Source of the DNA: an uncultured Planctomycetota bacterium
Lineage (GTDB): Bacteria > Planctomycetota > Planctomycetia > Isosphaerales > Isosphaeraceae
NCBI GenBank assembly: GCA_963737655.1
Contig: CAVTTN010000002.1
Coordinates: 6,048,001 to 6,112,000, forward strand
DNA: 64,000 nt
Direction of reading: 5' to 3'
The notes under the pieces were generated by a model that was not told where the DNA came from, made no database searches, and worked only from the letters and a program-made list of their open reading frames with translations. Shown here piece after piece: positions 11,867-35,460 of this stretch. The number at the start of each line of letters is the position of its first letter. The first letter of the stretch is position 1. The translations under genes were made by a program, and so were the position numbers.

Positions 11867-13270
11867 TCGATGCCCAGCGTCTTCTGGATCTCTTCGAGGG
11901 GGACGCCCTTGGTCTCGGGCATCAGGAACAGGGCCCACAGCAGTTGCAGGGCCATCATCGCCGCGTAGAAGGCGAAGGCATGGCCGCCGGAGCTCCGGGC
12001 GATCAGGGGGAACGTCCAGGTGATCAGGGCGGCCATGACCCAGTGAGTCGTGCTCCCCAGGGCCTGCCCCTTGGCGCGGACGCGGTTGGGGAAGATCTCG
12101 CTGATGAACACCCAGATCACCGCCCCCTGGCCGAACGCATGGGCCGCGATGAACAGGAGCAGGCCCCCGAGGACGACCGCCGAACCCGTCGCGGTGAACT
12201 CGGTCCCATACGTGTAGAAGGCCCACGCCGTCGCCCCCAGGCTGACGAGGTAGCCGGCCGAGCCGATCAGGATCAGCTTGCGACGGCCGATCCGGTCGAT
12301 CACCGTCATGGCCAGCATCGTGAACAGGAGGTTCGTCCCGCCCACGGCCACGGATTGCAGCAACGCCGAGTCCTTGCCCGCGCCGGCCATCTCGAAAATC
12401 TTCGGCGGCGTAATACATGAGCGCGTTGATCCCCGAGAGTTGATTGAACATCGCGATGGCCACGGCCAGGAAGATCGGCCGGCGATACTCCCATCGGAAC
12501 AGGGAGTCCGACCCGTGATGGTGCGAGAGGTCGAGCGATCGCCGGATGTCCTCGACCTCCTCGTCGATCCCCGGGCCATCGACGCCCAGCCTCGCCAGGA
12601 CGGCCCTGGCCTCCTCGACCCGGCCTCGGGCCATCAGCCATCGGGGGCTTTCCGGGGTGGGGAACAGCAGGAGGAAGAACGCGGCCGACGGGATGACCTG
12701 GACGCCCAGCATCCATCGCCATTCCGACGCGCCCAGATTCAGTCGCGCGATCAAGTAATTCGACAGGAACGCGACCAGGATGCCCAGGACGACGTTGAAT
12801 TGCTGGGCCGCCACCAGCCGGCCGCGCACCCTCGCCGGGGAGATCTCCGCGATGTACAGCGGCGAGACGACCGAGGCCCCGCCGACGGCGAGCCCTCCCA
12901 GGGCGCGGAAGGCCAGGAACGAATACCAGTCCCACGCCAGGGCGCTGCCCAGGGCCGAGACGAAATAGAGGACCGCCAGGACCATCAGGGCCTTCTTCCG
13001 GCCCCACGAATCGGCGGGCTTTCCCGCGAAGATCGAGCCGACGATGGTGCCGACCAGGGCGATGGCGACGGTGATCCCCAGGAGGTTTTCGCTCAGATGA
13101 TACGTCGTCTTGATCGCCTCGGTGGTGCCCGAGATCACGGCCGTGTCGAAGCCGAACAGGAGGCCGCCGAGGGCCGCCACGATCGCGCTGCCGATCAGGA
13201 CCGGGGTGACCGAGACCCGGGCCGGGGGCCGGGTCGCGTCCCCGGCCGGTCGAACGTCGGTGGGAATCAC
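11863..13270 (-). CDS. Sugar porter family MFS transporter; apparent frameshift near 12405
   Basis: GGLLFGFDTAVISG, DSWGRK, YIAEISP, PESPRWL, NQLSGIN, IDRIGRR and PETKG, spread over two frames that join at ~12405 (YYA/PKIFEMAG). Confidence 0.93.
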
Positions 13271-14172
13271 GGGAGGGCCTCCGTCTCGGGGTCCGGGGGG
13301 AACTTCAACGCATCGGGCAGGGTGGGCGTGCCCCCGGGCTGGGAGCAGACGAACGCGGCGACCTCGTTGGCATGGCGGTTGATCTCGTGGAGAGGGCGAC
13401 CGAGCAGGAGGCCGACGACCAGGGCCGCCGTGAAGGCGTCGCCGGCGCCGATCGTGTCGCGGACCGAGACGGCCGAGCCCGGATGCTCGGACCATTCGCC
13501 GCCGGACCGCAGCAGGCTGCCGTGGGGGCCTCTCGTCAGCGCCACGAGCGACAGGCCGAAGCGGTCGGCCAGCTCGGTCATCGCGGTTTTCGGGTCCGCC
13601 GAGAGGCCGAACATCGCCGCGAGCTCGGGCAATTCCTGGTCGTTGAGCTTCAGGGCGCTGGCCAGCTCCAGGGACTCGGCGATCACGTCGCGATCGACGA
13701 ACGGGGGGCGGAGGTTCACGTCGAGGAGGCGCAGGGCCCCGGGTCGGCTGGCCGAGACGATCGCCCGGATCGCCGATCGCGACGGCCCTTCGCGTTGCGA
13801 GAGGCTGCCGAAGCAGACCGCCCCGGCCCGGGCCGCGCGATCGAGGGCCGCCGGGCCCGCCTCGATCCGGTCCCAGGCGACGTGCTCCCGGATCGTGAAT
13901 CGCGGCTGGCCGTCGGCGGCGAGCTCGACGTCGACGGTCCCGGTGGGGAGCTCGGGATCGACCTGGACCGTCTCGGTCGGGAGGCCGAGCCCTCGGAATC
14001 GTTCCAGGACCTCGCGCCCCAGGGGATCGGCGCCGACCCGGGTGATCAGCGCCGCGTCGGCGCCCAGCGATCGGCATTGATACGTGAAATTGGCCGGTGC
14101 GCCGCCGAGCTGCTTGCCCGTCGGCAGCAGATCCCAGAGCACTTCGCCCACGGCGAGGATCGGAGGACTCAT
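13267..14172 (-). CDS. PfkB family carbohydrate kinase, probably fructokinase
   Basis: GEVLWD, GGAPANF, DVNLRPP and DTIGAGDAF motifs; first gene of the operon with the sugar porter and GH32. Confidence 0.93.
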   Translation of the reverse strand: MSPPILAVGEVLWDLLPTGKQLGGAPANFTYQCRSLGADAALITRVGADPLGREVLERFRGLGLPTETVQVDPELPTGTVDVELAADGQPRFTIREHVAWDRIEAGPAALDRAARAGAVCFGSLSQREGPSRSAIRAIVSASRPGALRLLDVNLRPPFVDRDVIAESLELASALKLNDQELPELAAMFGLSADPKTAMTELADRFGLSLVALTRGPHGSLLRSGGEWSEHPGSAVSVRDTIGAGDAFTAALVVGLLLGRPLHEINRHANEVAAFVCSQPGGTPTLPDALKFPPDPETEALP

Positions 14173-15557: not shown

Positions 15558-17330
15558 ATGCCCATGAGCCTCGGACCGCTGTTCCGTCGCGAGTTCCGGG
15601 CCGCGACGAGCGGACGTCGGACCTATCTCTATCGCGTCTTCGTGGCGGGGCTGCTCCTGCTGGCGGCGGGCGTGGTCGGCGCCGTGATCTTCTCGATGGA
15701 CCCGACGCGGGAGGAGGACTGGGACCGCACCACGGTCTTCGGCCAGGCGGCGTTCGTCGCGGTCTTCGGCGGGGAGTTGCTGGTCCTGGCCTTCCTCGTG
15801 CCGGCCCTGGTGGGGGCCGCCGTGGCCGAGGAGCGCCAGAAGGACACGCTGCCCTCGCTCCTGCTGAGCAAGCTCCGGCCGATCGAGATCGTGACGACCA
15901 AGCTCATCGCCCGCGGCCTCCCCGCCCTGAGCCTGGCGCTCACCGGCCTCCCCCTGCTGGTGGCGACGGCCTATCTCGGCGGCCTGGAGGTCCAGTTCCT
16001 GCTGGCGATGGCGGTGCTCGGGTCGAGCTGGCTGCTGATGGCGGCGCTGTCGATCCTGGCCTCGGCGGCCCGCGACCAGGCGGCGACGGCCCGCGCCCAG
16101 GCGACGGCCTGGGTCCTGGCCTGGTTCGTCCTCCTGCCGTTCCTGACCGTCCTGCCGGTCCGCTCCAACACGCTCTGGGGCGGGCTCCTGGGCGAGATCG
16201 GCGCGCTTTGCTCCTACATCGCCCCGGGCAGCCCGCTGTGGCTGGTGATCGATCGGAGCTGGTATTTCCGGCCGGAGGTGATGGACCTGGCCGGCAAGGT
16301 TGGCGTCATGATCGGCATCCAGGCGATCGTGGCGGTCCTGGCGACGGTCCACGCGGCGAGCTACCTGAAGGCCCGCGATCGCCATCCCAACTGGCTCGAT
16401 CCCACGAGGGGCTACCGCCCTCCGTGCGGCGACGACCCGATCTTCTGGAGGGAGTACGAGCTGCCGATGCGTCGAGGGGGCGGCTCGGTCCTCGCCCTGA
16501 GGCTCCGCACGGTCCGGGTCTTGATCCTGGCCATCCTCATCAATGCCCTGGCGCTGGTGGCCATCGCCCTGGTCCTGGCCATGCCGATCGGCCTGCTGTT
16601 CGCGACGATCTATTACGGCGTCCCGGCGTTCCAGGAATACTGGCGGCTGGGGGCGGCCGGGCCGTTCACCGAGAGGACTCGCTTCAACCTGGTCGTCCGG
16701 GTCGCGACCGGGATCTTCGCCCTGGTGCCGGCGATGAGCCTGGGGACGGTCATCTCGGGGAAGATCACGGCCGAGCGCGACAAGAAGACGTGGGATGCCC
16801 TCCTGACGACCCCGTTGAGCGGCGAGGAGATCCTCCGGTCCAAGGCGAAGGCCGCGCTCCACGGCTTCTGGCAGTCGGCGTGGCCGGTGCCGATCGTCTG
16901 GGTCCTCGGCCTGGCCTGCGGGGTGGTGATGCCCCTGCCCCTGCTCCTGGTCGCGATCGACGTGCCCCTGTTCGCCTGGCTGAGCCTGGCGCTCGGGTTC
17001 TTCGGGAGCCTGAAGCCCCAGCCCGCGGGCCCCGCGTCGAGCCGGCTTTCCATGCTGACGATGCTGATGTTCCTGATCCAGATCGCGGTGATGGGCGCCT
17101 CGCTGGTCGCGCCCTGGGAATATGCCGTGTTCTCCGGGTGGGACTGGCGGATCCGCTGGGGCGTGGTGCTCGGCGTCCTGGCGGTCGTCGCGGCGACCGG
17201 CCTGATCGCCTGGCGCCTGACCCGCCGGGTCCTCTCGGATTTCGAGGAGTGGGTCGGCCGCCCCCGCGTCGATCCGGCGGCCGGGCCCGGCGGGACGGTG
17301 GCTTCCACGAGCGATCACGTCTCCGCCTAA
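15558..17330 (+). CDS. ABC-2 type permease with duplicated halves (no ATPase gene adjacent)
   Basis: Multiple TM helices and two copies of the motif: AEERQKDTLPSLLLSKL and TAERDKKTWDALLTTPL. Confidence 0.85.
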   Translation: MPMSLGPLFRREFRAATSGRRTYLYRVFVAGLLLLAAGVVGAVIFSMDPTREEDWDRTTVFGQAAFVAVFGGELLVLAFLVPALVGAAVAEERQKDTLPSLLLSKLRPIEIVTTKLIARGLPALSLALTGLPLLVATAYLGGLEVQFLLAMAVLGSSWLLMAALSILASAARDQAATARAQATAWVLAWFVLLPFLTVLPVRSNTLWGGLLGEIGALCSYIAPGSPLWLVIDRSWYFRPEVMDLAGKVGVMIGIQAIVAVLATVHAASYLKARDRHPNWLDPTRGYRPPCGDDPIFWREYELPMRRGGGSVLALRLRTVRVLILAILINALALVAIALVLAMPIGLLFATIYYGVPAFQEYWRLGAAGPFTERTRFNLVVRVATGIFALVPAMSLGTVISGKITAERDKKTWDALLTTPLSGEEILRSKAKAALHGFWQSAWPVPIVWVLGLACGVVMPLPLLLVAIDVPLFAWLSLALGFFGSLKPQPAGPASSRLSMLTMLMFLIQIAVMGASLVAPWEYAVFSGWDWRIRWGVVLGVLAVVAATGLIAWRLTRRVLSDFEEWVGRPRVDPAAGPGGTVASTSDHVSA

Positions 17331-17875: not shown

Positions 17876-20800
17876 ATGAGCAAGTCGTCGCGGAAGAGGA
17901 ACCACGGCCGGATGGCCTGGCGGAGGCGGCCCGCCGCCCTCCCCGACCGGGCCTTCCGGCCCTCGCCGGTCGATCGGCTGGAGGACCGAACCGTCCCGTC
18001 GCCGGTGGTCGGCGGCCTCCACCTGCTCCACGACACGGGCGTGTCCGGCTCCGACGGGATCACGACGGACCCCACGATCGCGGGGACCGTGACGAACGGG
18101 GGCGCCCGCGTCGATGGGCTGACGGTCCAGGTCGATGTCAACGGCGACGGCCAGGCCGACGGCACGACGGCGACGGACAGCGCCGGGGCGTTCGTCTTCG
18201 ACCCGTCGAGCCTGGACCTCGCGCCCGGCACCGTCCACGTCTCGGCCCGCGCCGGGGCGTTCGACGCGACCCAGGACGCGACGGTGTACGGGGCCTGGAC
18301 GAACCTGAGCTTCACCCTGGAGGCGCCCGACCCCCCGCCGGTGGTCGCCTCGCTCGGCCTCCTGAACGACTCGGGGCCCCGGACGGCGTGACCTTCGACC
18401 CGACGCTCACCGGGGTCGTCACCGACGGGGCGACGGCCTCGGGCCTGCCGGTCCAGGTCGACACCAACGGCGACGGCTACGCCGACGGCAACGCGACGAC
18501 CGACGCCAACGGCGGCTTCACCTGGACGCCGACTCGCCTGACCCCGGGCCGGTGACCGTCGAGGCGAGGGCGGGGGCCTACGATCCGGTCCAGTCGGCCT
18601 GGGTCTACGGGGACTGGAGGACGTTCAGCTTCACCCTGGCCGCGCCGACGCGCCCCCGGTGATCCCCTCGCTCTCCCTGCTCCACGACACGGGCTCGTCG
18701 CCGTACGACCGGATCACGTCCGACCCGAGGGTCACCGGCTCGGTGACCAACGACGGGCCGACCTCGGGCCTGACCGTGGAGTTCGACCAGAACGGCGACG
18801 GCCAGGCCGACGGCACCGCGACGACCGACGCCCAGGGGAACTTTATCGACCTGCCCTCGGGCCTGTCCCCCGGCCCGGTGACGATCCGGGCCCGGCCCAC
18901 CGAGTACGATTCGGTGCTCGGGGCGGTCCAGGACGGGGCCTGGGTCTCCCTGAGCTTCACCCTGGTCGCCAACACGGGCCCGGTGGTCACGTCGCTGGTC
19001 CTGGCCGATGACAACGGGGCGTCGTCCACCGACGGCATCACGTCCGACCCGACGGTCAAGGGGAGCGTCACGGACCCCGACGGCGCCTCGGGCCTGACCG
19101 TCGAGGTCGACGAGAACGGGGACGGCCAGCCGGACGGGACGGCGACGACCGACTCTCAGGGGAATTTCACGTTCGTCCCGCGAGGGCTCGCCCCGGGGCC
19201 GCAGACGGTCCGGGCCCGGGCCATCGCCCACGACTCGGCGGACGGTCGCGACCTGACGTCCGACTGGGTCGCCGTCAGCTTCACCCTCCTGGACCACGTC
19301 AAGGCCGCGCCGACGCTCGCCTCGATCGCCCTGCTCGACGACACCGGCACCTCGGCCTCGGACCTGGTGACGACCGACCCGAGGATCGCCGCCTCGGTCA
19401 CGAGCCAGGAGGCGGGCATCTCCGGCCTGGCCGTCGAGTTCGACACCAATCATGACGGCGTCCCGGACGCCTCCGTCCTGGCCGACGCGACCGGGGCCCT
19501 GACGTACAATCCGCTCTGGGCCCGGCCCGGGACCGTCACGTTGCAGGCCCGAGCCAAGGGCTACGACAGCGACCAGTCGGCCGAGCTGTACGGCGCGTGG
19601 ACGAGCTTCAGCTTCACCCTCCAGTCCAATCCGCAGGCGGCGCCGGTGGTCGCGGGCCTGGCCTTGCTCGATGACACCGGGGCGTCCTCGACCGACAACG
19701 TGACGGCCGACCCGGCGTTCGGCGGGGCGGTCACGCAGAACGGGACGGCCTCGGCCGGGCTGACGGTGGAGATCGACACCAACGGCGACGGGACGCCCGA
19801 CGCCACGGCCACGACCGACTCCGGCGGCCACTTCGCCCTCTCGCCGGCCGGGCTGGCGGCCGGCCCGGTGACGGTCCGGGCCCGGGGCAAGGCGTACGAC
19901 TACGGCCTGGGGGCCTACGTCACGGGCTCCTGGGCGTCGCTGTCCTTCACCTTGACGACGGCCTCGCCCCCGGCGATCACGACGCTCGGCCTGGCCAACG
20001 ACAACGGCGTGTCGGCGACCGACAAGATCACCAGCGACCCGTCGATCGCCGGGGTGGCCTCCTCGGGCACGAACGGCGGCTCGGGCCTGACGATCGAATA
20101 CGACACCAACGGCGACGGCCAGGCGGACGGCTCGGCCCCGGCCGACTCCCAGGGCCGGTTCAGCTTCACGCCGGCCCAACGCCCGGCCGACGGCCCGGTC
20201 ACGATCCAGGCCCGGGCCAAGTCCTGGGACGACACGCAGCAGGCCTGGATCGTCGGCTCCTGGACGCCCTTCTCGTTCACGCTGGTCGCCCCGGCCGCGC
20301 CGACGATCCAGGCGCTCGGCCTGGTCAACGACGACGGGACGTCGTCCACGGACAAGGTGACGAGCGACCCGCGAATCCAGGGGACGGTCCGGGCCGACGG
20401 CTCCCCGGCGGGGCTGCTCATCCAGGTGGACACGACGGGCTCGGGGGTCGCCACGGGCACGGCCCGGACCGACGGCCAGGGCGGGTTCGTGTACGACCCG
20501 AGGGACCTCAAGCCGGGCGCCCACACCGTCCAGGTCCGCGCCGGGGCCTACGATCCCGACACCAAGGCGTACCTGTACGGGGCCTGGGCCCCGTTCAGCT
20601 TCACCCTGACCACCGGCTCGTCCTCCGCGCCGTCGGTGACCGGCCTGGCGCTGCTCAGCACCGGCGGATCGGGCGGGACCGGCGGCTCGGGCGGCAAGGG
20701 CGGGCTGGGCGCGCCGGGGTCGGGCCCGATGTACGGCCCCCCCGGCTCGACCTCCACCAGCGACCCGACCGTGACCGGGACCGTCACCAACGGCGGGGGG

Positions 20801-23800
20801 AGCGTCGATCACCTGACCGTCGAGTTCGACACCAACAACGACGGCTCGCCCGACGGCTCGACGACGACCGACGCCCGGGGCAACTTCACCTACCGCCCGC
20901 CGCTGACCACGGCCGGCCAGGTGACGATCCAGGCCCGGGCGAAGGTCTGGAGCTACTCGCAGTCGGCCTACGTGACGGGCGCGTGGGCCTCGATCTCGTT
21001 CTCCTATTCGCCGAGCGGCTCGGCGAGCAACCCGGGCGTCAACGGGGCCCTGCCCGGGTCGGGGAGCGAGGTCGCCGCGTCCGACGCGGCGTATCGCTCG
21101 TCGGTGGCCCAGGGCGGCTCGACCTACGACGCGAACGTCGGCGCCTCGGGATCGACGGCCAACGGCGCCGCGGCCCTGGGCGTGGGGAGCTACACCCCCC
21201 TGAACAGCCAGGGCAACGCCTCGACGACCTCGGGCACGCCGGACCTCAGCCCGACCTTCAGCGTGAGCTCGCCCTCGTCCTCGCCGGCCCCGAAGACCTA
21301 CAACAACACGCTGACCACGAACGACTCGCCGACGACCCCCACCGGCTCCGCGACCCGCTCGGAGACCGAGACGATCACCTACAACCTGACCGCCTCGGGC
21401 GGCTCCTTCACCCTCGACGTGACGATCGACCTGAGCTTCTCCTACACCGAGAAGGGGGATTACGCGGTCTCGGCCAACGGCGAGACGGATAATCACTCCT
21501 ACATCATCAACGTCAGCGGCAAGTACAAGCTGGTGCTCCACGAGTCCGGGACCTACTCGACGACGGGCCCGGGGGTGACCGAGTCCGGCTCGCTCTCCGC
21601 GACCGAGACCGGCTCGTACAGCTCGGACTACATCGACACGGACAACTACTCGCTGAGTTCGACCGGGAGCTCGGGCGGGGGGACGTCCACGACCGACCTC
21701 AAGGGGGGCTACAGCTTCTCCTACGGGGAGTCGGGGAGCTTCAGCGCCGGGGGCGGCCATTCCGGCGTGACGGACGGCTACACGCTCTCCGGCTCGGACG
21801 ACTTCTCCTATTCCGGGACCGATTCGGGCCATTTCTCGTTCTCGTCGTCCGGCGGCGGGGGCTCCTCCTCGTCCAGCGGGACGTATAGCGACGGCGCCTC
21901 GGGCTCCTACGGGGACAGCTACGGCGATTCGGGCCAGTACTCGGCCAGCGATTCGGCCTACACGTTCACCGGCTCCTACACCTACGGCGAGGGGGGCGGC
22001 GACTCCACGACCGAGAGCGACTCCGGAGGCTCGACCTGGAGCGCCTCGGGCGACAGCGGGTCGGACAGCTCGACGTACACCGACGCCTACAACCAGAACT
22101 ACACCTACGGCGAGGGCGGCTCCTACACCGTCACCGACAAGACCCAGGTCGTCTCGGCCAGCGCCCGGCTGACCGCCCACGCCGACGAGACGATGGGCCT
22201 CCAGGGGGGCGATTCCTACTCGGTCGTGGAGGGCCAGGACAAGTACACCGGCTCGGTCGGCTACTCGTCGTCCGGGACGTACTCCGAGGACGCCACCGCC
22301 TCGGCGTCGGAAACGATCAACGGCGCGAGCACGACCGTCTCGGGCCGCACCTCGGTCGAGGCGACGGGGGGCTCGACCGACTCCTCGCAGGACTCGGGGA
22401 CCTACCTCGTCGTCGGGGCCTCCAGCGGCAACAGCGGGACGTATCACGACTCCGACAGCCAGTCCGGGAGCTACGACGGCAAGATCTCCGAGAGCTTCAC
22501 CGACGCCAATGGCGCCGTGAACGCCAGCGGGACGTACAGCCTGGACGACGGCGGCACCGACACGTTCTCCAGCGGAGAGACCGGCCAGTACGCGGACTCG
22601 TCCTCGACCAGCAGCGACAGCGGCACCTTCACCACGGCGATCTCGGGGACGGACGCCTCGTCGGTCCATTACTCGTCCAGCTTCACGCAGACGCCCTCGG
22701 ACTTCTCGGTGACGGGGAGCTTCGCCACCAGCGATTCCGGGTCCGGCAGCGAGTCCTACTCCGAGAACGGCAACTATTCGAGCTCCTACTCCACCAGCAG
22801 CTACGACTACGGATACAGCTCGTCCTCGGGCTCGGACGTGGGCCACTTCACCGAGGCCCAGTCGGAGACCGAGAGCACCTCGGACTCCGATTCGGGCTCC
22901 TACGCCTTCGACGACGCGAATTTCAGCCTGACCCACAGCGTGAGCAATTCGGACTCCCTGGGCTCCTCGTTCTCGTACTCCGGCGGGGGCGACTTCACCG
23001 ACTCGACGACCGACGGCTCCGGCACCACGACGACCCGGGGCAGCTACACCAGCACCGAGCAAGGGACGGACGCCCTCTCGACGGGCCTCGCCGGGTCGGC
23101 CACCACGAACAACAACGCGTTCTCCTCCAGCTCCACGGCGACCCGCCACGACGCGACGACCGGCTCGGGCAGCGAGAGCGAGGCGGGGTCGTACTCGTCC
23201 AGCGTCACGACCAACGGGACGACCACGACGACCCAGGGCCAGTACGCGTCGTCCGACGGCGGATCGTCCTCGACGAGCGACCAGGACACGGCCCACTACG
23301 CCCTGAGCAACTCCTCATTCGGCGTGACCGGCTCGTACAACCATGCCGAGTCGGCCGGCGGGAGCTCGTCCTACCAGGATGCCGGGACCGTGACCGACTC
23401 GTCATCGAACGAGACGGACACCGACAACTACACGTATTCCGACGCCCAGACCGACGCGGAGACCTATTTCGACTCCGGCACCTACAGCCAGGGGTCGGCG
23501 TTCGTGAACGACGGCAACTCGGGCGCGACGACGATCCACGGCTCGATCGACTCGGAGACGCACTCCGGGACCTACTCCGGCACCGGGGGCTTCGACAGCT
23601 TCGGCTTCGGGACGACCAGCTACGGGGGGGATTACCAGACCAGCGACAACTCGTCCTCGACCTTCTCCTCGGGCGCCTCGGGGGCCTATCACAAGGACAA
23701 CGTGAACTCGACGACCTCCGGCTCGTTCGGGAGCTCCGAGGGGGCTCGTCGTCCTATTCCGACACGTTCCACGACCACTCCTCGACCTCGGGCGGCGGCA

Positions 23801-26363
23801 CCTCGACGAGCGGATCGACGACCACCACGACCCTGGACAGCGAGTCGGAGAACTCGAGCATCAGCGAGTCGGGGAACTACGGGTTCTCCTCCGGCGATTC
23901 GGGGACGTACTCGACCTCCAACGGCTATTCGCAGACCAACGGCAACTATGCGGACAGCTCGGCCGAGTCCGACACCTGGTCGACCGGCGGGTCGGGCAGC
24001 TCGTCCTCCTCGGCCGTGACCTCGACGTCGTACAACTACCCGGGTTCGTACGGGTACAGCGGCGGAGGAGGCGGGGGCAGCAGCACCATCAGCGACTCGA
24101 CCTCGAGCTCGGGGTCCGGCAGCGAGAGCGGCGATTCGAGCCTGACGACGACCGACCAGGGCTCGTACACGGCCTCGGCCTCGCCCACGTCGTCCAGCCG
24201 GGTCAGCGACGGCCATAATTCGGCGTCCGAGACGCGGTCGGCCCAGGCCAGCTCCTCGGGCGGGGGGACGACCTCGCATTCGTCCTCGGCCACCAACGGA
24301 GGGGGGAGCAGCTCGTCGGGCTGGACCAGCACCGGGCAGACCACCGCCTCGGCGAACACCAGCTTCGCCTACCAGGAGGCCAGCACCTACCACTCCGGCG
24401 ACGCCAACGCCTCGACCAACGGCACCTTCTCCTCGAGCTCGGGGACGAACCAGGCGAGCACGTTCTCCGGGACGTATCAGAGCGGTTCGTCTTCCAACTA
24501 CAGCAGCTCCTACAGCGGGGGGAGCAGCTCCAGCAACAGCCAGAACTCGTTCAACGCCTCGATCGCGCAGACCGGGACGGTGAGCTCGACCTACAGCGAC
24601 TCCGGCACGTTCGGCTCGAGCTCGTCGGGGAGCTGGACGAACGGCTCGTTCAGCAAGACGAACCGCCAGGTCAGCTCGGCGGCGTACGGCGATACGTCCA
24701 CCTATCAGAGCTCGTCGCATTCGAGCGACTCCTCGTCGTCCGAGGACGACTCGGGGGGCGGCGACGCGAGCACCTCGCTGACCCAGCAGCTCACGACGAG
24801 CTCGCGGAACTCCGCCACCTACTCCCAGGGGCCGGGCGGCAGCACCAACAGCGGGAGCGACAGCCTCAGCCACACCGGCAGCAACACCTACGGGGCCACC
24901 GCCCACAGCCACGACTCCCAGGGCTGGAGCAGCGACGGCGCCACCGGGACGAGCACCAATTCCTACAGCCATTCCGAGGGCTCCAGCGCCGGGCATTCGG
25001 ACTCCGCGTCCGACTCGTTCACCAACGGCGCGAGCACCGGCGACAACGCCTCGACCGACGTCTCCTCGAAGAGCTACGTCACCGACGGCAGCGGGAGCTG
25101 GTCCTACTCCTCCAGCAACGACAGCGGCAGCGGGAGCTCCTCGAACCATTCCGAGGGCAACTACACCGGCACCGGCGGGAGCTCGGCCCACTACACCCCG
25201 ACCGGCTCCAGCGGCGACTTCAGCGAGGACGAGGACAGCACGCAGAGCTCCAACAGCTCGGACAACGGCACCTCCACCTCGATCAACCCGCCGTCGTTCG
25301 ACAGCTACATCTTCCAATCGACCTACAACGACCACTCGACGTACCAGGCCTCGGGCACCCTGAACAACAACACGCCCGACGGCACGTTCTCGCAGACCAC
25401 CAGCGGCCTGGCGACCTACTCCGGCGCCGGGGTCAGCGTGAGCCCGGCCGGGACGTTCCCCTGGTCGTTCTCCTTCGCGATCCCGCACTACAACGAGATC
25501 GACGGCAAGATCACGGCCGAGGGGCGGGAGGCCGGCGCGTCCTGGCTCGACGACCTCCAGACGATCCTGGACGTCGCCGGGATGATCCTCCCGTTCACCC
25601 CGGCGGCGGAGTTCGCCCCGGTCGTCGACGAGCTGAACGCCGGGATCTCGTTCCTCCGGGGCAACTACCAGGACGCGGCCCTGCGCGCGACCTTCGGCGC
25701 GATCCCGCTCCTGGGCAAGGCGGGCGGGGCGGCCCAACTGGCCGAGGACGGGAGCAAGATCACCTCGGGCCTGGCGAACCTCGGCGAGAAGCTCGCGCCG
25801 ATCGGCCAGGCGGGCCGCGTGATCCTCGGCGGGGTCGGCATCTACTCCGGCCTCGGCGACATCCGCGAGGGCCTGACCCGCGTGGGCGAAGGCGACTGGA
25901 TGGGCCTCTGGCAGGTCGCCCGCGGCACTCTGGCGCCTACCACGGCATCAGCTCGATCGCCCACGTGACCAACGAGATCGGCCTGTTCAACCTCTGCGGG
26001 ACCCCCCTGGGCGACGCCTTCGGCATCGGCAACTGCTTCGTGGCCGGCACCCGAGTCGTCCTGGCCGACGACTCCGAGACGGTCCTGCTCGCCGCCCTCC
26101 CCGGCCTGGACGCCGACGCCGACGCCGACCTCCAGGCCGACCTCCTCGAAACCGTCCGGGTGCCGCTGGGGATCACCTGCGTCGTCCTCGGCGCGGGCCT
26201 CGGCGGCCTCTGGCTCTACCGGGACCTCCAGGAGAGGCGACGACGCCGGAGGGCCCTGTTCCTCGACCTCGCCATCGACGACCACTTCGGCCCGGACGAC
26301 CCGGACGACCCGACCCTCGACGACCTCGCCGCCGAGCCTCGCGGCCTCCTCGGCATCGCCTGA
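17876..26363 (+). CDS. Giant (~2,800 aa) exported toxin carrier: Planctomycete LEDR export motif, 9 Ig-like repeats, Ser/Gly/Thr/Tyr/Asp-rich stalk, pre-toxin TG-like helices, Hint N-terminal block and TM anchor; apparent frameshifts near 18380, 18550, 18655, 23745 and 25930
   Basis: RPSPVDRLEDRTVPS; ~105-aa repeats L-x2-D-x-G...DP-x3-G-x-V...D-x-NGDG...W-x3-SFTL; WLDDLQTILDVAGMILP...NAGISFLRGN; CFVAGTRVVLAD at 26034. The ORF-track pieces join seamlessly across single-base shifts. Confidence 0.85.
18003..21010 (+). repeat. Nine tandem bacterial Ig-like repeats, most with a DxNGDG Ca-binding-like loop
   Basis: Repeat starts near 18003, 18340, 18659, 18985, 19315, 19645, 19975, 20305 and 20635, read directly from the translations. 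Confidence 0.85.
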
Positions 26364-26423
26364 CGTCGTCCCGCCCGATCTCACGGACCCTCCGACATCG
26401 CACACCCCACCGAGGTGAGGACC

Positions 26424-27646
26424 ATGAAGACGCACACGACCCCCCGACGGCCCGGCGGCCTCTGGCTGGCGATCGGCTCCTTCGTCCTGACGGCGGCGGG
26501 CCTGGGGCTGCTCGCCCGGCCGGCGGCGCGGCCCGCCCCGGATCGCCCGAAGCTCGTCGGGCTGGCCCACCGGCCCGGTGCGGCCGAGGCGACCCCGCGG
26601 ACGCTGGACATCCAGTCGATCGCGCTGGGCCAGAGGGTCGTCGGCTCGAACCCCGAGCGCGACGCCTCCGCCCTGGAGGAGGCCGAGCCCGAGCCGTCCT
26701 CGTGGCGGGCCGTCCGGCTGAGGATGACCAAGGCGACCGGCAAGAGGCTCGACATCGCCCTGCTCCGGCCCCTCGAATGGCTCCGCTCGCGAGAGGCCCG
26801 GGTCGGCCGGACCGTCGAGCTGAACCTCCGGGAGCTCGGCGCGGCGGGCAAGGCGGAAGTCCTGGCGATCGAGCCGTGCCCGGAGATCCGGCCGGGGACC
26901 GGCCACGTCGTCACCGGCACCTTCGCCCACGAGCCCGACAACCGGCTCCTCAACGTCCGGGTCGAGGGCCAGGACGAGCCGATCGGCTGCACCGACAACC
27001 ACCCGTTCTGGTCCGAGGATCGAGGCCGGTTCCTCAAGGCGGGCGAGCTCCGGGCCGGGGACCGCGTCCGGACGCTCGCCGGGACCCGGAAAGTCGAGGC
27101 GGTCTCGCCCCGCCCGGCCGAGGCCCTGGTCTACAACATCGAGGTCCAGGCCGAGCACGTCTACCTCGTCTCCAACGCCGGGGTCCTCGTCCACAATGCC
27201 TACAACGAGGAGACCATCGAGGAGACCGAGGAGAACCGGGGCCTGACGTGGACCACGGAGAACACCGGCAAGGAGAGCCAGGCGAAGGCTTGGGAGGACG
27301 GGGCCACCGGGGCGAGGTATCGCATCTCCGACCACATGCGAGAAGTCCCGGCCTTGCGCTACGACAACGCCAACCCGCGCGGCAATAATTACGCCCGCTT
27401 CGATGGGTGGGGCCGGAGGAGCCCAACACGCTCATCGATCGGAAGTGGAACGTGACGACCAAGTCGGGGCAGGTCGCCAAATTCAGGAGCGGGCCCCTTG
27501 AAGCCCTCAGCCAGAACCCGGAATATCGTCTGAGGCTCGAGGTCCCGACGAACCGGGCGGCGACCGACGCCCGCCGGCTCCTCCGCTACGCGACCGGCAT
27601 GGATTCGCACCCTCAGATCGACATCGTGGTCGTCCCCCAAGAATGA
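26424..27646 (+). CDS. TM-anchored Hint-domain remainder fused to a C-terminal PD-(D/E)xK (REase-fold) toxin; apparent frameshift near 27408
   Basis: GAGG RBS and ATG 26424; TM LWLAIGSFVLTAAGLGLLA; IQSIALGQRV, CTDNHPFW, GELRAGDRV and VYNIEV..H.Y.V...GVLVHN; then RFDG/(V)GPEEPNTLIDRK across a G-run shift. Confidence 0.85.
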
Positions 27647-28329
27647 GCAAGGACAATCGAAGGATCTGGCTGGTCCTGCACTCGCGAGCCGAGGAGTCCG
27701 ACCCGGTCGAGCGGAAGCACGCCCGCTTCTTCGAGGGCTGCGAGTCCCTGCCCGCCCCCTGGGGCCCGGGGGGCCGCCCCTACCCCCCGGTCCCGCCCTT
27801 CTTGGGCGGGTCGACGGCGATCCTCTCCTGGACCAAATACCTCGGGGGGATCGCTCGACGGGCCCTGATCAGCTATCGATACCGGAGGCTTCTCCGGGAC
27901 GACGGACTCTCCGACGACTTAGTGACCATCGTCTTGGCGGCCTCCAGGATCGACTGGGATCTCCTCGCCAAGGCCGTGATCCCGACTTATCTGAGGGCCT
28001 TCGACGCCTATCTCGTGGAGGTGTTCGACGAATCCTCCTTCACCGAATCCGGAGGGAACTCCCGGGAGGCCTTCAATCCTCGCTCCGAGGTCCGAAAGCT
28101 TCGCATCATCAACTATTTCGATGCAGAACTCTGCCGGCGCACCTTCAAGGCCTCGCCCGGATCGCTCCTCCTCCTGGTCACGGACAAGGCGGCTCACGCC
28201 GAAATCATCAACGATGGCCTCTACCTGATCCCGGCCGATCCCGGCTCGCCCCCGGACCTGATCGACGGCGCGTGCCAGGCCTGTTACGAGGCCCTGATCG
28301 GGACGAATCCTCGAACGCGACTCGGATGA
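27643..28329 (+). CDS. Probable cognate immunity protein
   Basis: The ATG overlaps the toxin stop (ATGA 27643-27646); 228 aa; codon usage is visibly more AT-rich than the carrier. Position is the main evidence. Confidence 0.75.
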   Translation: MSKDNRRIWLVLHSRAEESDPVERKHARFFEGCESLPAPWGPGGRPYPPVPPFLGGSTAILSWTKYLGGIARRALISYRYRRLLRDDGLSDDLVTIVLAASRIDWDLLAKAVIPTYLRAFDAYLVEVFDESSFTESGGNSREAFNPRSEVRKLRIINYFDAELCRRTFKASPGSLLLLVTDKAAHAEIINDGLYLIPADPGSPPDLIDGACQACYEALIGTNPRTRLG

Positions 28330-28470: not shown

Positions 28471-30610
28471 ATGGACCGCCACCACCCGATTCCGACCGGA
28501 CCTCCGGGCCACGCGCCCGCCGGTTCCGCTCCCGACCCCCCCGCCCTGAACGACCTGGGGCTTCGCCTCGGCGAGGCCGGACGGCTTGACGAGGCGGAGG
28601 CGGCGCTTCGGGGGGCGATCTCGGCCGACCCGACGTACCCCGAGGCGTGGAACAACCTGGGGATCATCCTGGCCCGGACTCGCCGGCCGGATGAGGCGGT
28701 CCGGGCCTTCCGCGAGGCGCTCTGCCTTCGCCCGAACTATGCCGAGGCCCTGAGCAACCTGGGCCTGACCCGGGCCCGGCTCGGCCAGCCGGAAGAGGCC
28801 GTCGGCTGCTATCGCGAGGCCATCCGGCTGAAGCCCGACTACCCGCAGGCGCTGACGAACCTGGGGATCGCCCTCGTCGGCCTGGGCCGCGCGGAGGAGG
28901 CCGTCGAGGCCCATCGCCGGGCGATCCGGCTCGCGCCCGGAATCCCGAGGCCCACAGCTCCCTGGGCCTGGCCCTGGGGCGGCTCGGGCGGAAAGACGAG
29001 GCCGAGGCGAGCTTTCGCGAGGCGATCCGCCTCCGTCCCGAGTCCACCGAGCCCCGGAACAACCTGGCGAACCTGCTCGCCTCCCGGGGCCGCCGAGACG
29101 AGGCGATCGCGCTCTATCGCGAGGCGATCCGCCTCCGCCCGTCGTATGCCGAGGCGCACAACAACCTCGGCAACGCCCTGGTCGAGGCCGGCTTGCCCGG
29201 CGAGGCGATCGGTCATTACGAGGCCGCCCTGGAGATCCAGCCGGAGTATCCCGAGGCGCACAACAACCTCGGCAACGCCCTGGCCGAGCGAGGGCTCCAC
29301 CACGACGCCATCGCCCGATACCGCCGGGCCCTGGAGATCCGCCCGAGGTACGCCGAGGCCAGGAACAACCTGGGCAACGCCCTGAGGGACCTGGGCCGGC
29401 TGGAGGAGGCGATCCCCGAGTTCCGCCGGGCCCTGGAGCTCCGCCCGAACTATCCCGAGGCGCACAACAACCTGGGCAACACGCTCCGCGGCCTCGGGCG
29501 GCTGGACGAGGCGATGGCGTCGTTCGCGGAGGCCCTCCGGCTCCGCCCGGACTATGCCGACGCGATCAGCAATCGCGGGATCGCGCACGTCGAGAGGGGC
29601 GACCTCGATCGGGCGTCCGAGGACTTCGAGCAGGCCATCCGGCTCCGCCCCGACTTCGCCGATGCTCACATGAATCGGGCCCTGACCTGGTTGACCCGGG
29701 GCGACCATGCCCGGGGCTGGGCCGAGTACGAATGGCGGTGGAAGGTCCGGGCGCCGCCCCCCGCCGCGACCCGGCCACGGAGTGGGACGGCTCCCCCCTG
29801 GAGGGGCGGACGATCCTCCTCCACACCGAGCAGGGCCTCGGCGACGCGATCCAGTTCATCCGGTTCGCGGCGAGCGTCCGCGACCGGGGCGGGCGGGTCC
29901 TCGTCGAATGCCCGAAGGGGCTGGTCCCCCTGCTCGGGAGCTGCCCGGGGATCGCGGGGCTGGTCGCCCGGGGCGAGGAGGCGCCGCCGTTCGACGTCCA
30001 CGCCCCGTTGCTCGGCCTGCCCCGCCTGCTGGGGACGACGCTCGCCAACCTCCCGAGGGCCGTCCCCTACCTCTCGGCCGATCCGGCGGCCGTCGCCCGA
30101 TGGGGCGAGGAGCTGGCGCTCGATCGCTCGTGGAAGGTCGGGATCGCCTGGCAGGGGAACCCGCGATTCAAGGCGGACCGGCACCGCTCGATCCCCCTGG
30201 CCCGCTTCGCGCCCCTGGCCGCGGTGCCCGGGGTCCGGCTCTACGGGCTCCAGAAGGGGCCGGGGACCGAGCAGATCGCCCCGGCCTCGGCGACGGTCCC
30301 CCTGGTGGACCTCGGCGCCCGGCTGGACGAGGCCGGGGCGACCTTCGCCGACACCTCGGCCGTGATGAGGCATCTGGATCTGATCGTGACCTCCGACACC
30401 TCGATCGCCCACCTCGCCGGCGCCCTGGGCGTGCCGGTCTGGGTGGCCCTCGGGGCGTCCGCGGACTGGCGATGGCTCCTCGGCCGGGAGGATTGCCCGT
30501 GGTACCCGACCATGCGCCTCTTCCGCCAATCCCGCCCCGGCGACTGGGCCGAGGTCCTGGCCCGGATCGCCGACGAGGTGCGCCGGATGGCCCCGCGCCG
30601 GGCTCCGTGA
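28471..30610 (+). CDS. TPR-repeat protein with C-terminal GT-B (GT9/heptosyltransferase-like) glycosyltransferase domain; apparent frameshifts near 28945 and 29760
   Basis: About 11 TPRs (EAHNNLGNAL), GWAEYEWRW, EQGLGDAIQFIRF, VGIAWQGNP, LDLIVTSDTSIAHLAGALG, DWRWL and PWYPTMRLFRQ. Confidence 0.9.
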
Positions 30611-31309: not shown

Positions 31310-34300
31310 ATGAATGGCACTCGCAGCCGGAGGCGGATGACGGGCCTCGTCCTTCTCGCCCCGATCGTCGCGATCGTCCCCGCCGCTCGTGCGGACGACC
31401 CGCCGGCCCTCCTGGCGAAGGCCGCGACCGAATTCGCCGGCGAGGCCCGGCCTCTCCTGGCGAAATACTGCCTGAAGTGCCACTCAACCAAGGCGATGGA
31501 AGGCGAGCTCGACCTGGAGCGGTTCGGCTCGCTCGGCGACGTCCGCAAGGCCACGGCCGTCTGGCTGAAGGTCGGCGAGATGCTCGACAACGGCGAGATG
31601 CCGCCGAAGGAGGCGAAGCGGATGCCCGCCGCCGACCGCCAGGCGCTGCGAGACTGGCTGACCCGCTACCTCCGGGCCGAGGCCCTGGCCGGCGCGGGCG
31701 ACCCCGGGCCCGTCGTCCTTCGTCGATTGAGCAATGCTCAATACACATATACCTTGCGAGACCTCACCGGCGTCCCGCTCGACCCGGCCCGCGAGTTCCC
31801 CGTCGATGGCGCGGCCGGCGAGGGGTTCACCAACACGGGCAATGCCCTGGTGATGTCGCCGGCGCTGCTGGCGAAGTATTTCGACGCCGCCAAGGGCGTG
31901 GCCGATCACGCCGTCCCCCTGCCCGACGGCCTGCGGTTCTCCGCCGGTCCCACCCGCCGGGACTGGACCGATGAGACCGTCGGCCGCATCCGCTCGGCCT
32001 ACGCCGAGTTCACCGACTCCGGCGGCAGCACCCAGGTGAACCTCCAGGGGATCGTCTTCGGCACCAACGCCGGAGGTCGCCTGCCCCTGGAACATTACCT
32101 CGCCGCGACCCTGGCCGAGCGCGTCGCCCTCGCGAACGGGACGAAGACCGTCGAGGCCGTGGCGAAGCAACGCAAGCTCAGCCCCAAATATCTCGGCATT
32201 CTTTGGTCGGCCCTGAACGCGAACGAGCCCTCGCCCCTGCTCGACGGCGTCCGCTCTCGATGGAAGGCCGCGAGCGAGGCCGACGCGGCGGCGATCGCCC
32301 GGGAAATCGGCCTCTGGCAGTCGGCGCTCTGGAAGTTCAACAGCGTGGGGCAGCTCGGCAAGATCGGCGGGCCGAAGTCGTGGATGGAGCCGGTCTCCCC
32401 CTTGCAGACCGGGCAGGAATTCCGCCTCCCGCTCGCCCCGCCCGCCGACGGGAAGGACGTCACGCTCTTCCTGAGCGCCGAGGCCGCCTCCGAGGGACCG
32501 GGTCGGGGGGCGGTCGTCTGGGAGAATCCCCGGCTGGTCTCGCCCGGGATGGTCGATTTGCCCCTCCGAGACGTTCCCGAGGTCTCCCGAGGCTTGCTCG
32601 CCCGTCGCGAGACGGTCTTCGCGGCGGCGGAAAAGAGCCTGGCGGCGGCCGTCGAGGCGGGCGAGGCCCGAGAGGGCTTCAACCCCGAGGACCTGGCCCG
32701 CAAGCACGACGTCCCGCCCGACGTCCTGGCCTCGTGGCTCGACTCTCTCGGCCTCGGCAGCGGGCCCGTGGCGATCACGTCCCATCTCCGGGAGAAGAAT
32801 CGGAAGGGATCGGGGTTCGATTTCGTGAACGGCTGGGGGCCCGGGGCCACGCCGAACGTGACGGCCAATTCATCGGACACTCACGTTCGCATCCCGGGCA
32901 ATCTGCGGCCTCACAGCGTCGCGATGCATCCGTCGCCGACGTTGCGGGTCGTCGCCGGCTGGCTGAGCCCGGTCTCGGCGACGTTGAAGATCTCGGGATC
33001 GGTCCAGCACGCCCATCCCGAGTGCGGCAACGGGGTGACCTGGGCGTTGGAGGTCCGCCGCGGGTCGACCCGCCAGAGGCTGGCGGCGGGGGTGTCGCAG
33101 GGTTCGAAGGTGATCCCGCTGGGCCCGTTCGAGGGCGTTGCGGTGAGGCCCGGCGACCTGGTTTCGCTGGCGATCGGCCCCCGGGACGGCAACTACTCGT
33201 GCGACCTCACGGCCGTCGACCTGAACCTCTCGGCCGACGGCCAGGCCTGGGACCTGGCCGGGGACGTCTCGCCCGACATCCTCGCCGGCAACCCCCACGC
33301 CGACCGGCTGGGCCATCCCGGGGTCTGGCACTTCTTCACCGAGCCCGACCGAGGCGGCGACCCCGGCACCACGTTCCCCGCCGGATCGGTCCTGGCGAAG
33401 TGGCAATCGGCCACGACCCCCGAGGCGAAGGCCGCGCTGGGTCGAGAGGTCCAGGCCCTGCTCTCGGCCGGCCATCCGCCGAAGGACGGCCCCGACGCGG
33501 CCCTGTATCGCCAGTTGGCCTCCTTGCGGAGCCCGCTGTTCCGGTCGGTCCGAAGCGAGATCGGCAAGGTCGCCGCCGGGGCCCCGGCCCCGGGGATCGG
33601 GCCCGCGACGTTCGGGAAGAAGCCCGGGGGCGAGGCGATCGAGCCGACGAGCCTGGGCGTCGAGGCGCCGTCTCTGGTCGAGGTGACGATCCCGGCCGGC
33701 CTGGTGGAGGGCTGCGAATTCGTGACCTCGGCGCGGGTCGTCGCCTCGGGGGCGCGGAGGCCGCGCAGTTCGCGGTCTCGACGGCGAAGCCCGGGTCGGG
33801 CCCCCGGCCCGACCCGTCCCGTCCCGTGATCGTGGCCGATTCGGGCCCGGCTCGCGAACGGTATGAAGCGGCGTTCGCCGCCTTCCGCTCGCTGTTTCCT
33901 CCGGCGCTTTGCTATACGAAGATCGTCCCGGTCGACGAGGTCATCACGCTGACCCTCTTCTATCGAGAGGACGACCACCTCCGCCGCCTGATGCTGGACG
34001 ACGCCCAGGCGGCGAAGCACGATCGGCTCTGGGACGAGCTCCGGTTCATCAGCCAGGACGCCTTGATCCTCGTCGATGCGTTCCAGCAGCTCCTGGAATA
34101 CGCCTCGCAGGACAGCGACCCGAAGGTGCTGGAACCCCTGCGAAAGCCGATCATGGACCGGGCCGCGGCGTTCCGCAAGGCGCTGGTCGAGGCCGAGCCC
34201 AGGCAGCTTGACGCCGCGATCGCCTTCGCCGAACAAGCCTACCGCCGCCCCCTGAAGCCGGGCGAGGCCGAGGAGCTTCGCGGCCTCTATCGCAAGCTTC

Positions 34301-35460
34301 GCAACGAGGAATTGCCCCATGATGATGCCTGGAGGCTCGTCCTGGCGCGAATCCTGGTCTCTCCGGCGTTCCTCTACCGGGTCGAGGCGGCCGGTCCGGG
34401 TTCGGCCGCGTCGCCGGTCAGCGACTGGGAAATGGCCAGCCGTTTGAGCTATTTCCTCTGGTCGTCGGCCCCCGACCCGGCCCTCCGAGACCTCGCCGCC
34501 GCCGGCCGATTGCGCGATCCCGACGTGATCGCGGCGCAAGCCCGCCGGATGCTCCAAAACGAGAACTCCCGCCGCCTCGCAACCGAGTTCGCCTGCCAGT
34601 GGCTTCATGTCTATGATTTCGACACCCTTGACGAGAAAAGCGAGCGGCATTTCCCGACGTTCAACGGCCTCAAGGGCCCGATGTACGAGGAGACCATCCT
34701 CTTCTTCACCGACCTCTTCCGCCGAGACCTGCCCGCGCTCGCATTCCTCGATGCCGACACCACGTTCCTCGACGCCCGGCTGGCCGAGCACTACGGGATT
34801 CCCGGGGTCTCCGGCGACGGCTGGAGGAGGGTCGAAGGGATGAAGGCGGCCGGGCGGGGCGGCATCCTCGGCCTCTCGACCACGCTGGCGAAGCAGTCGG
34901 GGGCCTCGCGGACCAGCCCGATCCTCCGGGGCAACTGGGTCGCCGAGGTCCTCCTGGGCGAGAAGCTGCCCAAGCCGCCGCCGGGAGTCCCGCAACTGCC
35001 CGAGGACGAGGCCGCGACCGGCGGCCTGAGCGTCCGCCAGCTCGTCGAGAAGCATAGCCAGGACGCCAAGTGCGCGACCTGCCACGTCCGCATCGACCCG
35101 TTCGGCTTCGCCCTCGAAGGCTTCGACGCGATCGGCCGGAAGCGCGAGAAGGACCTGGGCGACCACCCGATCGCCGTCGAGGCGAAGCTGCGAGACGGCA
35201 CCGAATTCCGAGGGCTCGACGGCCTCCGAACGTATCTCCTGACGACCCGTCGCGAGGCGGTCTCCCGCCAGTTCTCGCGAAAGCTCCTCGGCTACGCCCT
35301 GGGCCGAGCGGTCCAGCTTTCGGACGACCCGTTGCTCGACGAGATGACGAAGCTCGTCGCCGGAGGGGGCCGGATCGGCGACGTGGTCGAGACGATCGTC
35401 AAGAGCCGCCAGTTCCGGGAGATCCGCGGGCGCGATGCCGTGGCCACGGAGGCTCCGTAG
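31310..35460 (+). CDS. Planctomycete cytochrome-c/DUF1587-DUF1595-DUF1592-DUF1588-DUF1585 protein; apparent frameshift near 33750
   Basis: Signal peptide, CLKCH, EMPP, LRRLSNAQYTYTLRDL, ILVSPAFLYR, ASRLSYFLWSSAPD, RTSPILRGNWV and CATCHVRIDPFGFALEGFD. Confidence 0.92.

Follow-up and report, generated by a model that had tools for sequence, protein, structure and literature searches.

A pre-toxin Hint domain divided between carrier and toxin genes at a planctomycete toxin locus

The window analysed here is a stretch of 64,000 nucleotides from an uncultured Planctomycetota bacterium (contig CAVTTN010000002.1; genome G000, 7.6 Mb, 88% complete). From 17876 to 28329 it carries a polymorphic toxin-type locus in which the pre-toxin Hint domain is divided between two genes: the end of a long carrier gene encodes the first Hint strand (HintN), and the start of the toxin gene that follows encodes the remainder (HintC). 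Each part is accompanied by a predicted transmembrane helix, TM1 in the carrier and TM2 in the toxin gene. The plus strand is coding across the locus, with a G+C content at third codon positions (GC3) of ~0.96, and the frame shifts six times as judged from the GC3 frame profile and stops. The features are as follows.

17876–26363, + strand: carrier gene, ~2,830 codons, with five frameshifts inside (GC3 profile, stops, break contexts)
17978–17995, + strand: LEDR motif behind a basic leader of the planctomycete extracellular type (the genome's own leader profile)
17993–21030, + strand: nine Ig-like repeats, Big_13-like (Big_13 matches, repeat count)
21030–25480, + strand: Ser/Thr/Gly-rich stalk, ~1,480 aa (composition)
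25540–25719, + strand: pre-toxin helical region (32–33% matches in the related carriers L035 and L078)
26034–26069, + strand: HintN, with Cys1 and the first Hint strand (CFVAGTRVVLA), residues 1 to ~12 (alignment A2)
26160–26252, + strand: predicted TM1 followed by an Arg run, a putative C-terminal anchor, N-out/C-in (hydropathy, Lys/Arg bias)
26361–26423, + strand: carrier stop TGA (26361–26363) and a 60-nt non-coding spacer with a GAGG ribosome-binding site
26424–27646, + strand: toxin gene encoding TM2, HintC and toxin tip, with one frameshift near 27410
26460–26516, + strand: predicted TM2, a putative signal anchor or signal peptide, N-in/C-out (hydropathy, Lys/Arg bias)
26610–27197, + strand: HintC, the remaining Hint, with block B TxxH and terminal His-Asn (PT-HINT, E 4e-10)
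27198–27646, + strand: predicted nuclease toxin tip, restriction-endonuclease-like, with an FDG...DRK motif (homologs, motifs)
27643–28329, + strand: predicted immunity protein, 228 aa, its start overlapping the toxin stop by 4 nt

The carrier ends with the Cys1 motif (from 26034), a hydrophobic helix, six arginines, an acidic tail and the TGA at 26361. Following the GAGG and an ATG, the toxin gene opens with a basic stretch and a second hydrophobic helix, runs through HintC to the His-Asn (27197), and ends in the tip. Cys1, the block B TxxH, the terminal His-Asn and the Hint fold are present only when the two genes are combined, and in place of the one polypeptide of other polymorphic toxins a stop, a spacer, a Shine-Dalgarno (SD) motif and an ATG intervene. 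Because both window genes are in the same frame, a sequencing error at the split was conceivable, but the spacer is non-coding by GC3 (14/20, versus 0.96 in the coding DNA on either side; P 1e-4). An earlier, sequence-only reading of this DNA allowed that the toxin might be a separate gene, as its own ribosome-binding site, start codon and non-coding spacer confirm. That reading also placed a Hint here, and the PT-HINT match upholds it, albeit not as a single domain, since the first strand sits in the carrier. It overlooked this half kept by the carrier; the separation runs through a self-processing domain and goes beyond a stand-alone cassette.

A profile of HintN plus its helix was used to search the same genome for further loci, and a second carrier of 1,490 aa with an LEGR leader, an Ala-rich stalk and the same ending was found at G000:C2:1,854,952-1,859,424. 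This second split locus (L190, G000:C2:1,854,952-1,861,877, + strand) lies outside the window. Its toxin gene is in a different frame from the carrier and has a GAGG and ATG, a helix, a standard PT-HINT C-part and a different tip; a small immunity-like gene follows, and then a further helix-HintC-tip cassette with its own SD and start. The search for orphan cassettes that the sequence-only reading proposed was thus productive, and the genome contains two HintN carriers, three HintC toxin genes and two Hint subtypes. We note that frames starting at G000:C2 positions 101455 (+), 2442409 (-), 2806095 (+) and 4783027 (-) encode an uninterrupted Hint near the C-terminus; these four proteins end in His-Asp, not His-Asn, with only a short tail. 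Similar Hint matches, possibly of the same protein family, occur in 101 of 120 genomes of the bacterial family.

The six frameshifts (at about 18385, 18550, 18655, 23745, 25935 and 27410) are probably assembly errors because five of the six lie at C/G runs, according to the break contexts, and genes nearby are disrupted as well; sugar-transporter, TPR and planctomycete cytochrome-type neighbours (window 10319-14077, 28471-30610 and 31310-35460) also switch frame mid-gene. This points to indel errors throughout the assembly. Directly upstream of the carrier, on the same strand, is an ABC-2-type permease (window 15558-17330, +).

From the HintC side, a protein search returned at least 138 relatives among the matches listed, many of them proteins of 350–450 aa that begin with a helix and lack Cys1. 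We collected 71 loci from genomes (the best 80 of 254 matches) and 75 from metagenomes (the best 80 of 224), which with the window gave 179 HintC domains, or 161 after de-duplication; three one-chain calls were reassigned by eye, and matches starting beyond model position 25 were excluded from the counts. Fourteen of the 161 are split (the window counted), 28 are one-chain with the layout HintN-helix-linker-helix-HintC, three are uninterrupted, and 79 stand alone, in arrays of up to four; a further 32 are at contig edges, and five have long upstream frames in which no HintN was found. The block B TxxH is present in 146 of the 161. Nine of the 14 split loci are out of frame, and all three stop codons are used. 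Split forms occur in the isolate Gemmata algarum JC673 and in Planctomycetales 10988, whose genome is complete, and an Rhs carrier in genome G063 is split in the same manner.

From the other side, the HintN-helix profile matched in 4 of 121 genomes of the family, 49 of 401 of the class (Planctomycetia) and 6 of 301 of the phylum, the last six all being of the same class; these counts are lower bounds because only a few candidates per genome were scored. We read 33 of these HintN loci: 13 are split with an adjacent toxin gene (seven of them absent from the profile's training set), 15 are one-chain, one has a truncated HintC plus a separate gene, two lack a downstream HintC and two are at a contig edge. 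The carriers are of Rhs, Ig, cadherin-like, Ser-rich or Ala-rich types, with open frames of up to 13,571 codons, and split carriers retain open frames of 2,000–7,000 codons. The Hint module is independent of carrier type.

Several loci depart from these layouts. In the complete genome G204 (L227/L228) the 13,571-codon carrier frame spans both helices, HintC is truncated, and a separate helix-HintC gene comes next; another such gene is 2.9 Mb distant, and the 16 kb upstream of it contain no HintN. This carrier seems to rely on a trans-acting partner. In G353 (L206/L229) the carrier ends HintN-helix-stop with no HintC in ~3.5 kb downstream, and another contig holds a HintC lacking the first strand (L220, cut off where the contig ends). 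The carrier in G124 (L217) likewise ends HintN-helix-stop, lacks Cys1 and has no toxin gene behind it; no PT-HINT match was found in that genome. Finally, the cassette frames of L103, L129, L134 and L154 hold TM1 and linker with no HintN, and are possible remnants of recombination with one-chain genes.

Both predicted helices show the charge bias expected under the positive-inside rule. Lys and Arg are in excess after, as compared with before, TM1 in 40 of 40 cases. Ahead of TM2 they are in excess in 25 of 28 one-chain genes, in 9 of 12 split genes and in 46 of 63 that stand alone. By this rule the linker is predicted to be cytoplasmic, with both Hint halves, the carrier and the tip facing outward. 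An AlphaFold model of the one-chain relative L043 shows two long helices and a disordered linker together with a complete Hint, which matches 2LWY, a domain of the bacterial intein-like (BIL) type, with Z 17.4 and a root-mean-square deviation of 1.6 Å over 134 of 138 residues; the motif Cys falls on residue 1 of solved inteins and Hints. When the second protein of the window is modelled alone it matches solved Hint folds only from residue 11–15 on (Z 8.5 to 2LWY, from residue 11), and its last HintC strand is unplaced, with a pLDDT below 50 for 249–259 versus ~95 in the one-chain model. The second protein of the window lacks exactly the first Hint strand. An insertion of ~70 aa in HintC (window 26700-26907) is conserved, confidently modelled and characteristic of one planctomycete Hint subtype; a role in recognising the partner or a substrate is conceivable.

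Start signals are enriched where the toxin genes begin. Among split genes, 10 of 13 have an ATG and an SD-like motif ahead of TM2, as do 25 of 67 cassettes; the one-chain figure is 5 of 25, and among internal ATGs it is 10 of 186. An ATG alone precedes TM2 in 12 of 13 split genes versus 6.6 expected. We also considered an internal start before TM2 in one-chain genes and rejected it: an ATG is present in 20 of 28, approximately the number expected by an estimate from a 1.8% Met frequency. TM2 as a lipoprotein signal was likewise rejected, with a lipobox in only 4 of 100; an AxA signal-peptidase pattern follows TM2 in 54 of 100, a figure that lacks a control and is not used as evidence. The breaks concentrate in the linker (14 within 3,746 aa; in 31,697 aa of carrier there are no more than 25 frame starts or breaks), and among tandem copies pN/pS is 0.25 in HintC and 0.62 in the TM2 region. 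A HintC tree of 60 primaries, made by a quick method, interleaves split and one-chain forms with 11 changes by parsimony, at least five of them forced by well-supported (starred) branches. Splits would on this tree have arisen at least five times, although cassette swapping could inflate the count.

The tips behind these Hints are variable. Of 74 tips scanned, 16 matched Pfam families, which are for the most part toxins of the nuclease, deaminase or RNase kinds (AHH, LHH, WHH, EHHH, EndoU, deaminases, Cytotoxic, ParB and DUF2380). The other tips are unassigned, and further families occur among the relatives from the protein search. The window tip had no Pfam match, and when the toxin alignment was run against PDB sequences the one match was to a Hint and came from the carriers included in it. 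Its family comprises 10 homologs, with D57, D69 and K71 conserved, and also occurs behind uninterrupted Hints; intact homologs with 60–76% identity to it are on an Rhs carrier in G319 and are followed by the same immunity gene (46% identity). From its conserved FDG and DRK motifs, the tip may have a restriction-endonuclease fold close to Tox-REase-5, which has the motifs FDG and E-A-K and is found with Imm52 (available text of PMC3482391); the window tip shares FDG and has DRK instead of EAK. We infer that the tip may act as a nuclease.

The predicted immunity protein has 232 homologs, and no Pfam match was found in the 32 scanned; an Atlas lead to Imm52/DUF5953 is weak, Imm52 being on 18% of one cluster. 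Toxin precedes immunity gene with the 4-nt overlap, and the same pair recurs in G319; protection is predicted from this arrangement. The toxin-like tip and overlapping immunity-like gene of the sequence-only reading are therefore as described, and its assignment to the polymorphic toxins is borne out by variable tips behind a conserved Hint and by the recurrence of tip and immunity gene together on an Rhs carrier. One protein of 274 aa (P0255) joins the C-terminal half of the toxin family and the immunity family in one frame, as either a fusion or an assembly artefact.

In the carrier, the LEDR leader is matched by a profile of 40 other leaders from its own genome (E 6.5e-4; 41 LEDR-type leaders in total), and the nine Ig-like repeats and Ser-rich stalk reported earlier also stand, the former by Big_13 matches and repeat count and the latter by composition. 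The Pfam family Planc_extracel (PF07595) gave no match to the window leader, with 13 other matches in the genome at E≤0.1. The planctomycete-specific export that the sequence-only reading proposed is a hypothesis. No Pfam family matched the stalk, and its similarity to unnamed planctomycete clusters in the Atlas (0.87–0.89) is a lead only. The helices read as pre-toxin and TG-like do form a helical region with relatives just upstream of HintN in L035 and L078, with no Pfam PT-TG match; the HMM comparison suggested earlier thus succeeded for Big_13 and PT-HINT and not for Planc_extracel and PT-TG.

Scanning the pieces of the locus with Pfam gave no Rhs or haemagglutinin (FHA) match, and no YD repeats or Rhs core were found in the window carrier, both of which are present in the relatives L032, L035 and L110. 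A genome-wide ShlB search had no match anywhere, controls included. The statement that the system lacks an Rhs or type VI secretion system (T6SS) carrier accordingly describes this carrier well and does not extend further, as the same module is on Rhs carriers elsewhere and the genome has PAAR domains outside the window. These are at G000:C2:1,886,716-1,887,012 and 3,335,297-3,335,503, one of them ~25 kb from the second split locus. Neither Pfam nor NCBIfam gave a name for the toxin, the immunity protein, the stalk or the HintN-helix module.

The gene structure, the position of the split, its recurrence in many genomes, and the ribosome-binding site and start codon of the second gene are established. 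We think it probable that this is a two-gene, likely antibacterial toxin system in which the split Hint halves reassemble outside the cytoplasm and couple toxin to carrier. The carrier would be exported N-terminus first and halted at the predicted TM1, and the toxin precursor would be inserted by the predicted TM2, such that both Hint halves would be periplasmic and the linker, where present, cytoplasmic; a linker facing the cytoplasm would for that reason be breakable. Beyond the inner membrane, the short HintN strand would dock into HintC in the manner of atypically split inteins, clasping the toxin precursor to the carrier and completing the active site, so that the tip would be freed (by Asn cyclisation) only post-export and only with the carrier. 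Any translated helix-HintC-toxin gene in the cell could then pair with a carrier.

Clasping followed by cleavage is somewhat more likely than covalent splicing. In the latter case, which we regard as possible and put forward tentatively, the membrane-tethered split Hint would trans-splice whichever tip is expressed onto the giant carrier, and the spent Hint halves would stay in the membrane. A Hint pinned to the membrane would be sensible if processing passes the tip to the carrier, which would favour ligation, and the 2LWY domain reportedly trans-splices, going by the title of a 2013 paper by Aranko. Halves of a Hint in two genes are what naturally split inteins have, whereas their conserved Cys, Ser or Thr at +1 was not found: among 130 Hints residue +1 is Ala in 31 (the window included), Ser in 22, Gly in 19, Asn in 17, Thr in 14 and Cys in none, which places Ser or Thr there in 36, and Cys is at +2 in 53. 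BIL domains lack a +1 nucleophile and mostly undergo cleavage (PMC7664689 and PMC7765530, available parts).

Alternatively, the helix-HintC-toxin genes could be independent secreted toxins with a self-cleaving HintC, HintN-TM1 being a vestige or an adhesin anchor. We consider this unlikely. The distant helix-HintC gene of G204 and the G353 carrier without a nearby HintC fit such independence, as does the possibility of C-cleavage partly uncoupled from the N-terminal step (available text of PMC10189870), but distant genes are equally compatible with action in trans. Moreover, the C-terminal strand is unplaced when HintC is modelled alone, and of the 15 HintN loci where a stop follows TM1, 13 have the toxin gene next to the carrier.

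It is also improbable that only the one-chain form works, with splits decayed and stand-alone genes serving as silent recombination donors like the orphans of contact-dependent inhibition (CDI) and Rhs systems. The standard model has cassettes exchanged through recombination (PMC3482391, section 41, in its available text), and the frameshifts of this assembly, the cassettes with TM1 remnants or without TM2, and the near-identity of tandem HintC copies all agree with it. However, CDI orphans have no start codon (available text of PMC9086364), whereas the split and cassette genes have ATG and SD well above background; breaks cluster in the linker, and one genome contains two independent splits.

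Some T6SS and Rhs effectors carry helices for translocation, and TM1 and TM2 might similarly serve the target-cell membrane and not be anchors in the producer. This is very unlikely, as TM2 opens a new gene like a signal anchor and the charge bias would strand the nuclease on the outer side of the target membrane. Readthrough or programmed frameshifting that yields one chain, with nothing acting in trans, is very unlikely too: the window genes share a frame and the distance from Cys1 to HintC (187 codons) is inside the one-chain range of 143–313, but 9 of 14 split loci are out of frame with all three stop codons represented, the spacer is non-coding, and an SD and ATG precede TM2.

Other observations weigh against reassembly of the Hint from two gene products. 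The membrane helices come only from hydropathy and modelling, and the fold evidence is a model of a one-chain relative that can follow from likeness to solved Hints. The invariance of Cys1 in alignment A2 is circular because its rows were selected by that motif. A low pN/pS could be inherited from time in the primary position, and the near-identity of tandem HintC copies (pS ~0.015 in L054 and L083) fits recombination. HintC is nearly identical in L153 (split) and L163 (one-chain), and L117 has no in-frame TM2; some split calls may be errors or decay. Of the 79 cassettes, 16 are truncated or do not reach the TM2 threshold. With six other frameshifts at the window locus, its intactness is unproven.

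In its large carrier and variable tip the system resembles the PT-HINT polymorphic toxins (PF07591, A-type BIL; CdiA, MafB, Rhs and UmbC), and it shares with them Cys1...TxxH...His-Asn, the toxin-immunity order and downstream cassettes (PMC3482391 and PMC9086364, available text). As in A-type BIL and PT-HINT domains, there is no conserved +1 nucleophile. It differs in that two membrane helices interrupt the Hint behind about residue 12, or it is divided between two genes at that point, in that the cassettes have their own start and membrane helix, and in that one module spans Rhs, Ig/Ser-rich, cadherin-like and Ala-rich carriers. Natural atypically split inteins, such as PolB16 OarG with its 15-aa N-fragment, have a similar split near the N-terminus with a very short N-fragment and a long C-fragment; these reside in soluble enzymes and have a +1 nucleophile and one partner (available text of PMC10189870), whereas the halves here are predicted to be membrane-anchored and a single N-half may pair with several C-halves. 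Orphan modules of CDI and Rhs systems also form toxin-immunity arrays downstream of a primary gene with a common homology block, but CDI orphans lack start codons (PMC9086364, as above), while the cassettes here mostly have an ATG, often an SD, and a signal-anchor-like helix.

MafB of Neisseria has a whole N-terminal domain and, where present, a whole Hint, and unlike here no catalytic domain is known to be divided between MafA and MafB. As here, the toxin and its partner at the surface are encoded separately, and the two are believed to associate (PMC3482391, section 37, available text). No split or membrane-interrupted pre-toxin Hint was described in the literature searched, subscription papers and the PMC3482391 supplement on domain architectures being outside its coverage; the available texts of PMC13483458, an umbrella-toxin preprint, a giant-gene preprint and PMC3482391 (sections 37 and 41 included) do not mention the design. 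Within that literature, this would be the first natural split BIL domain found.

Polymorphic toxins are thought to exchange tips when DNA recombines into a single long gene, with the Hint domain treated as a simple release switch. A membrane-threaded and repeatedly split Hint implies that carrier and toxin can be linked as proteins, and that the cassettes called orphans may have activity; if this is true, one carrier could take different toxins without DNA rearrangement. Trans-splicing of interchangeable tips, if true, would be categorically new, with one carrier armed from a library of warheads. The split Hints are a candidate source of split-intein tools working outside the cytoplasm, and since cultured strains carry the split form, direct testing is possible. 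They also offer a handle on how planctomycetes export and use giant proteins with LEDR leaders.

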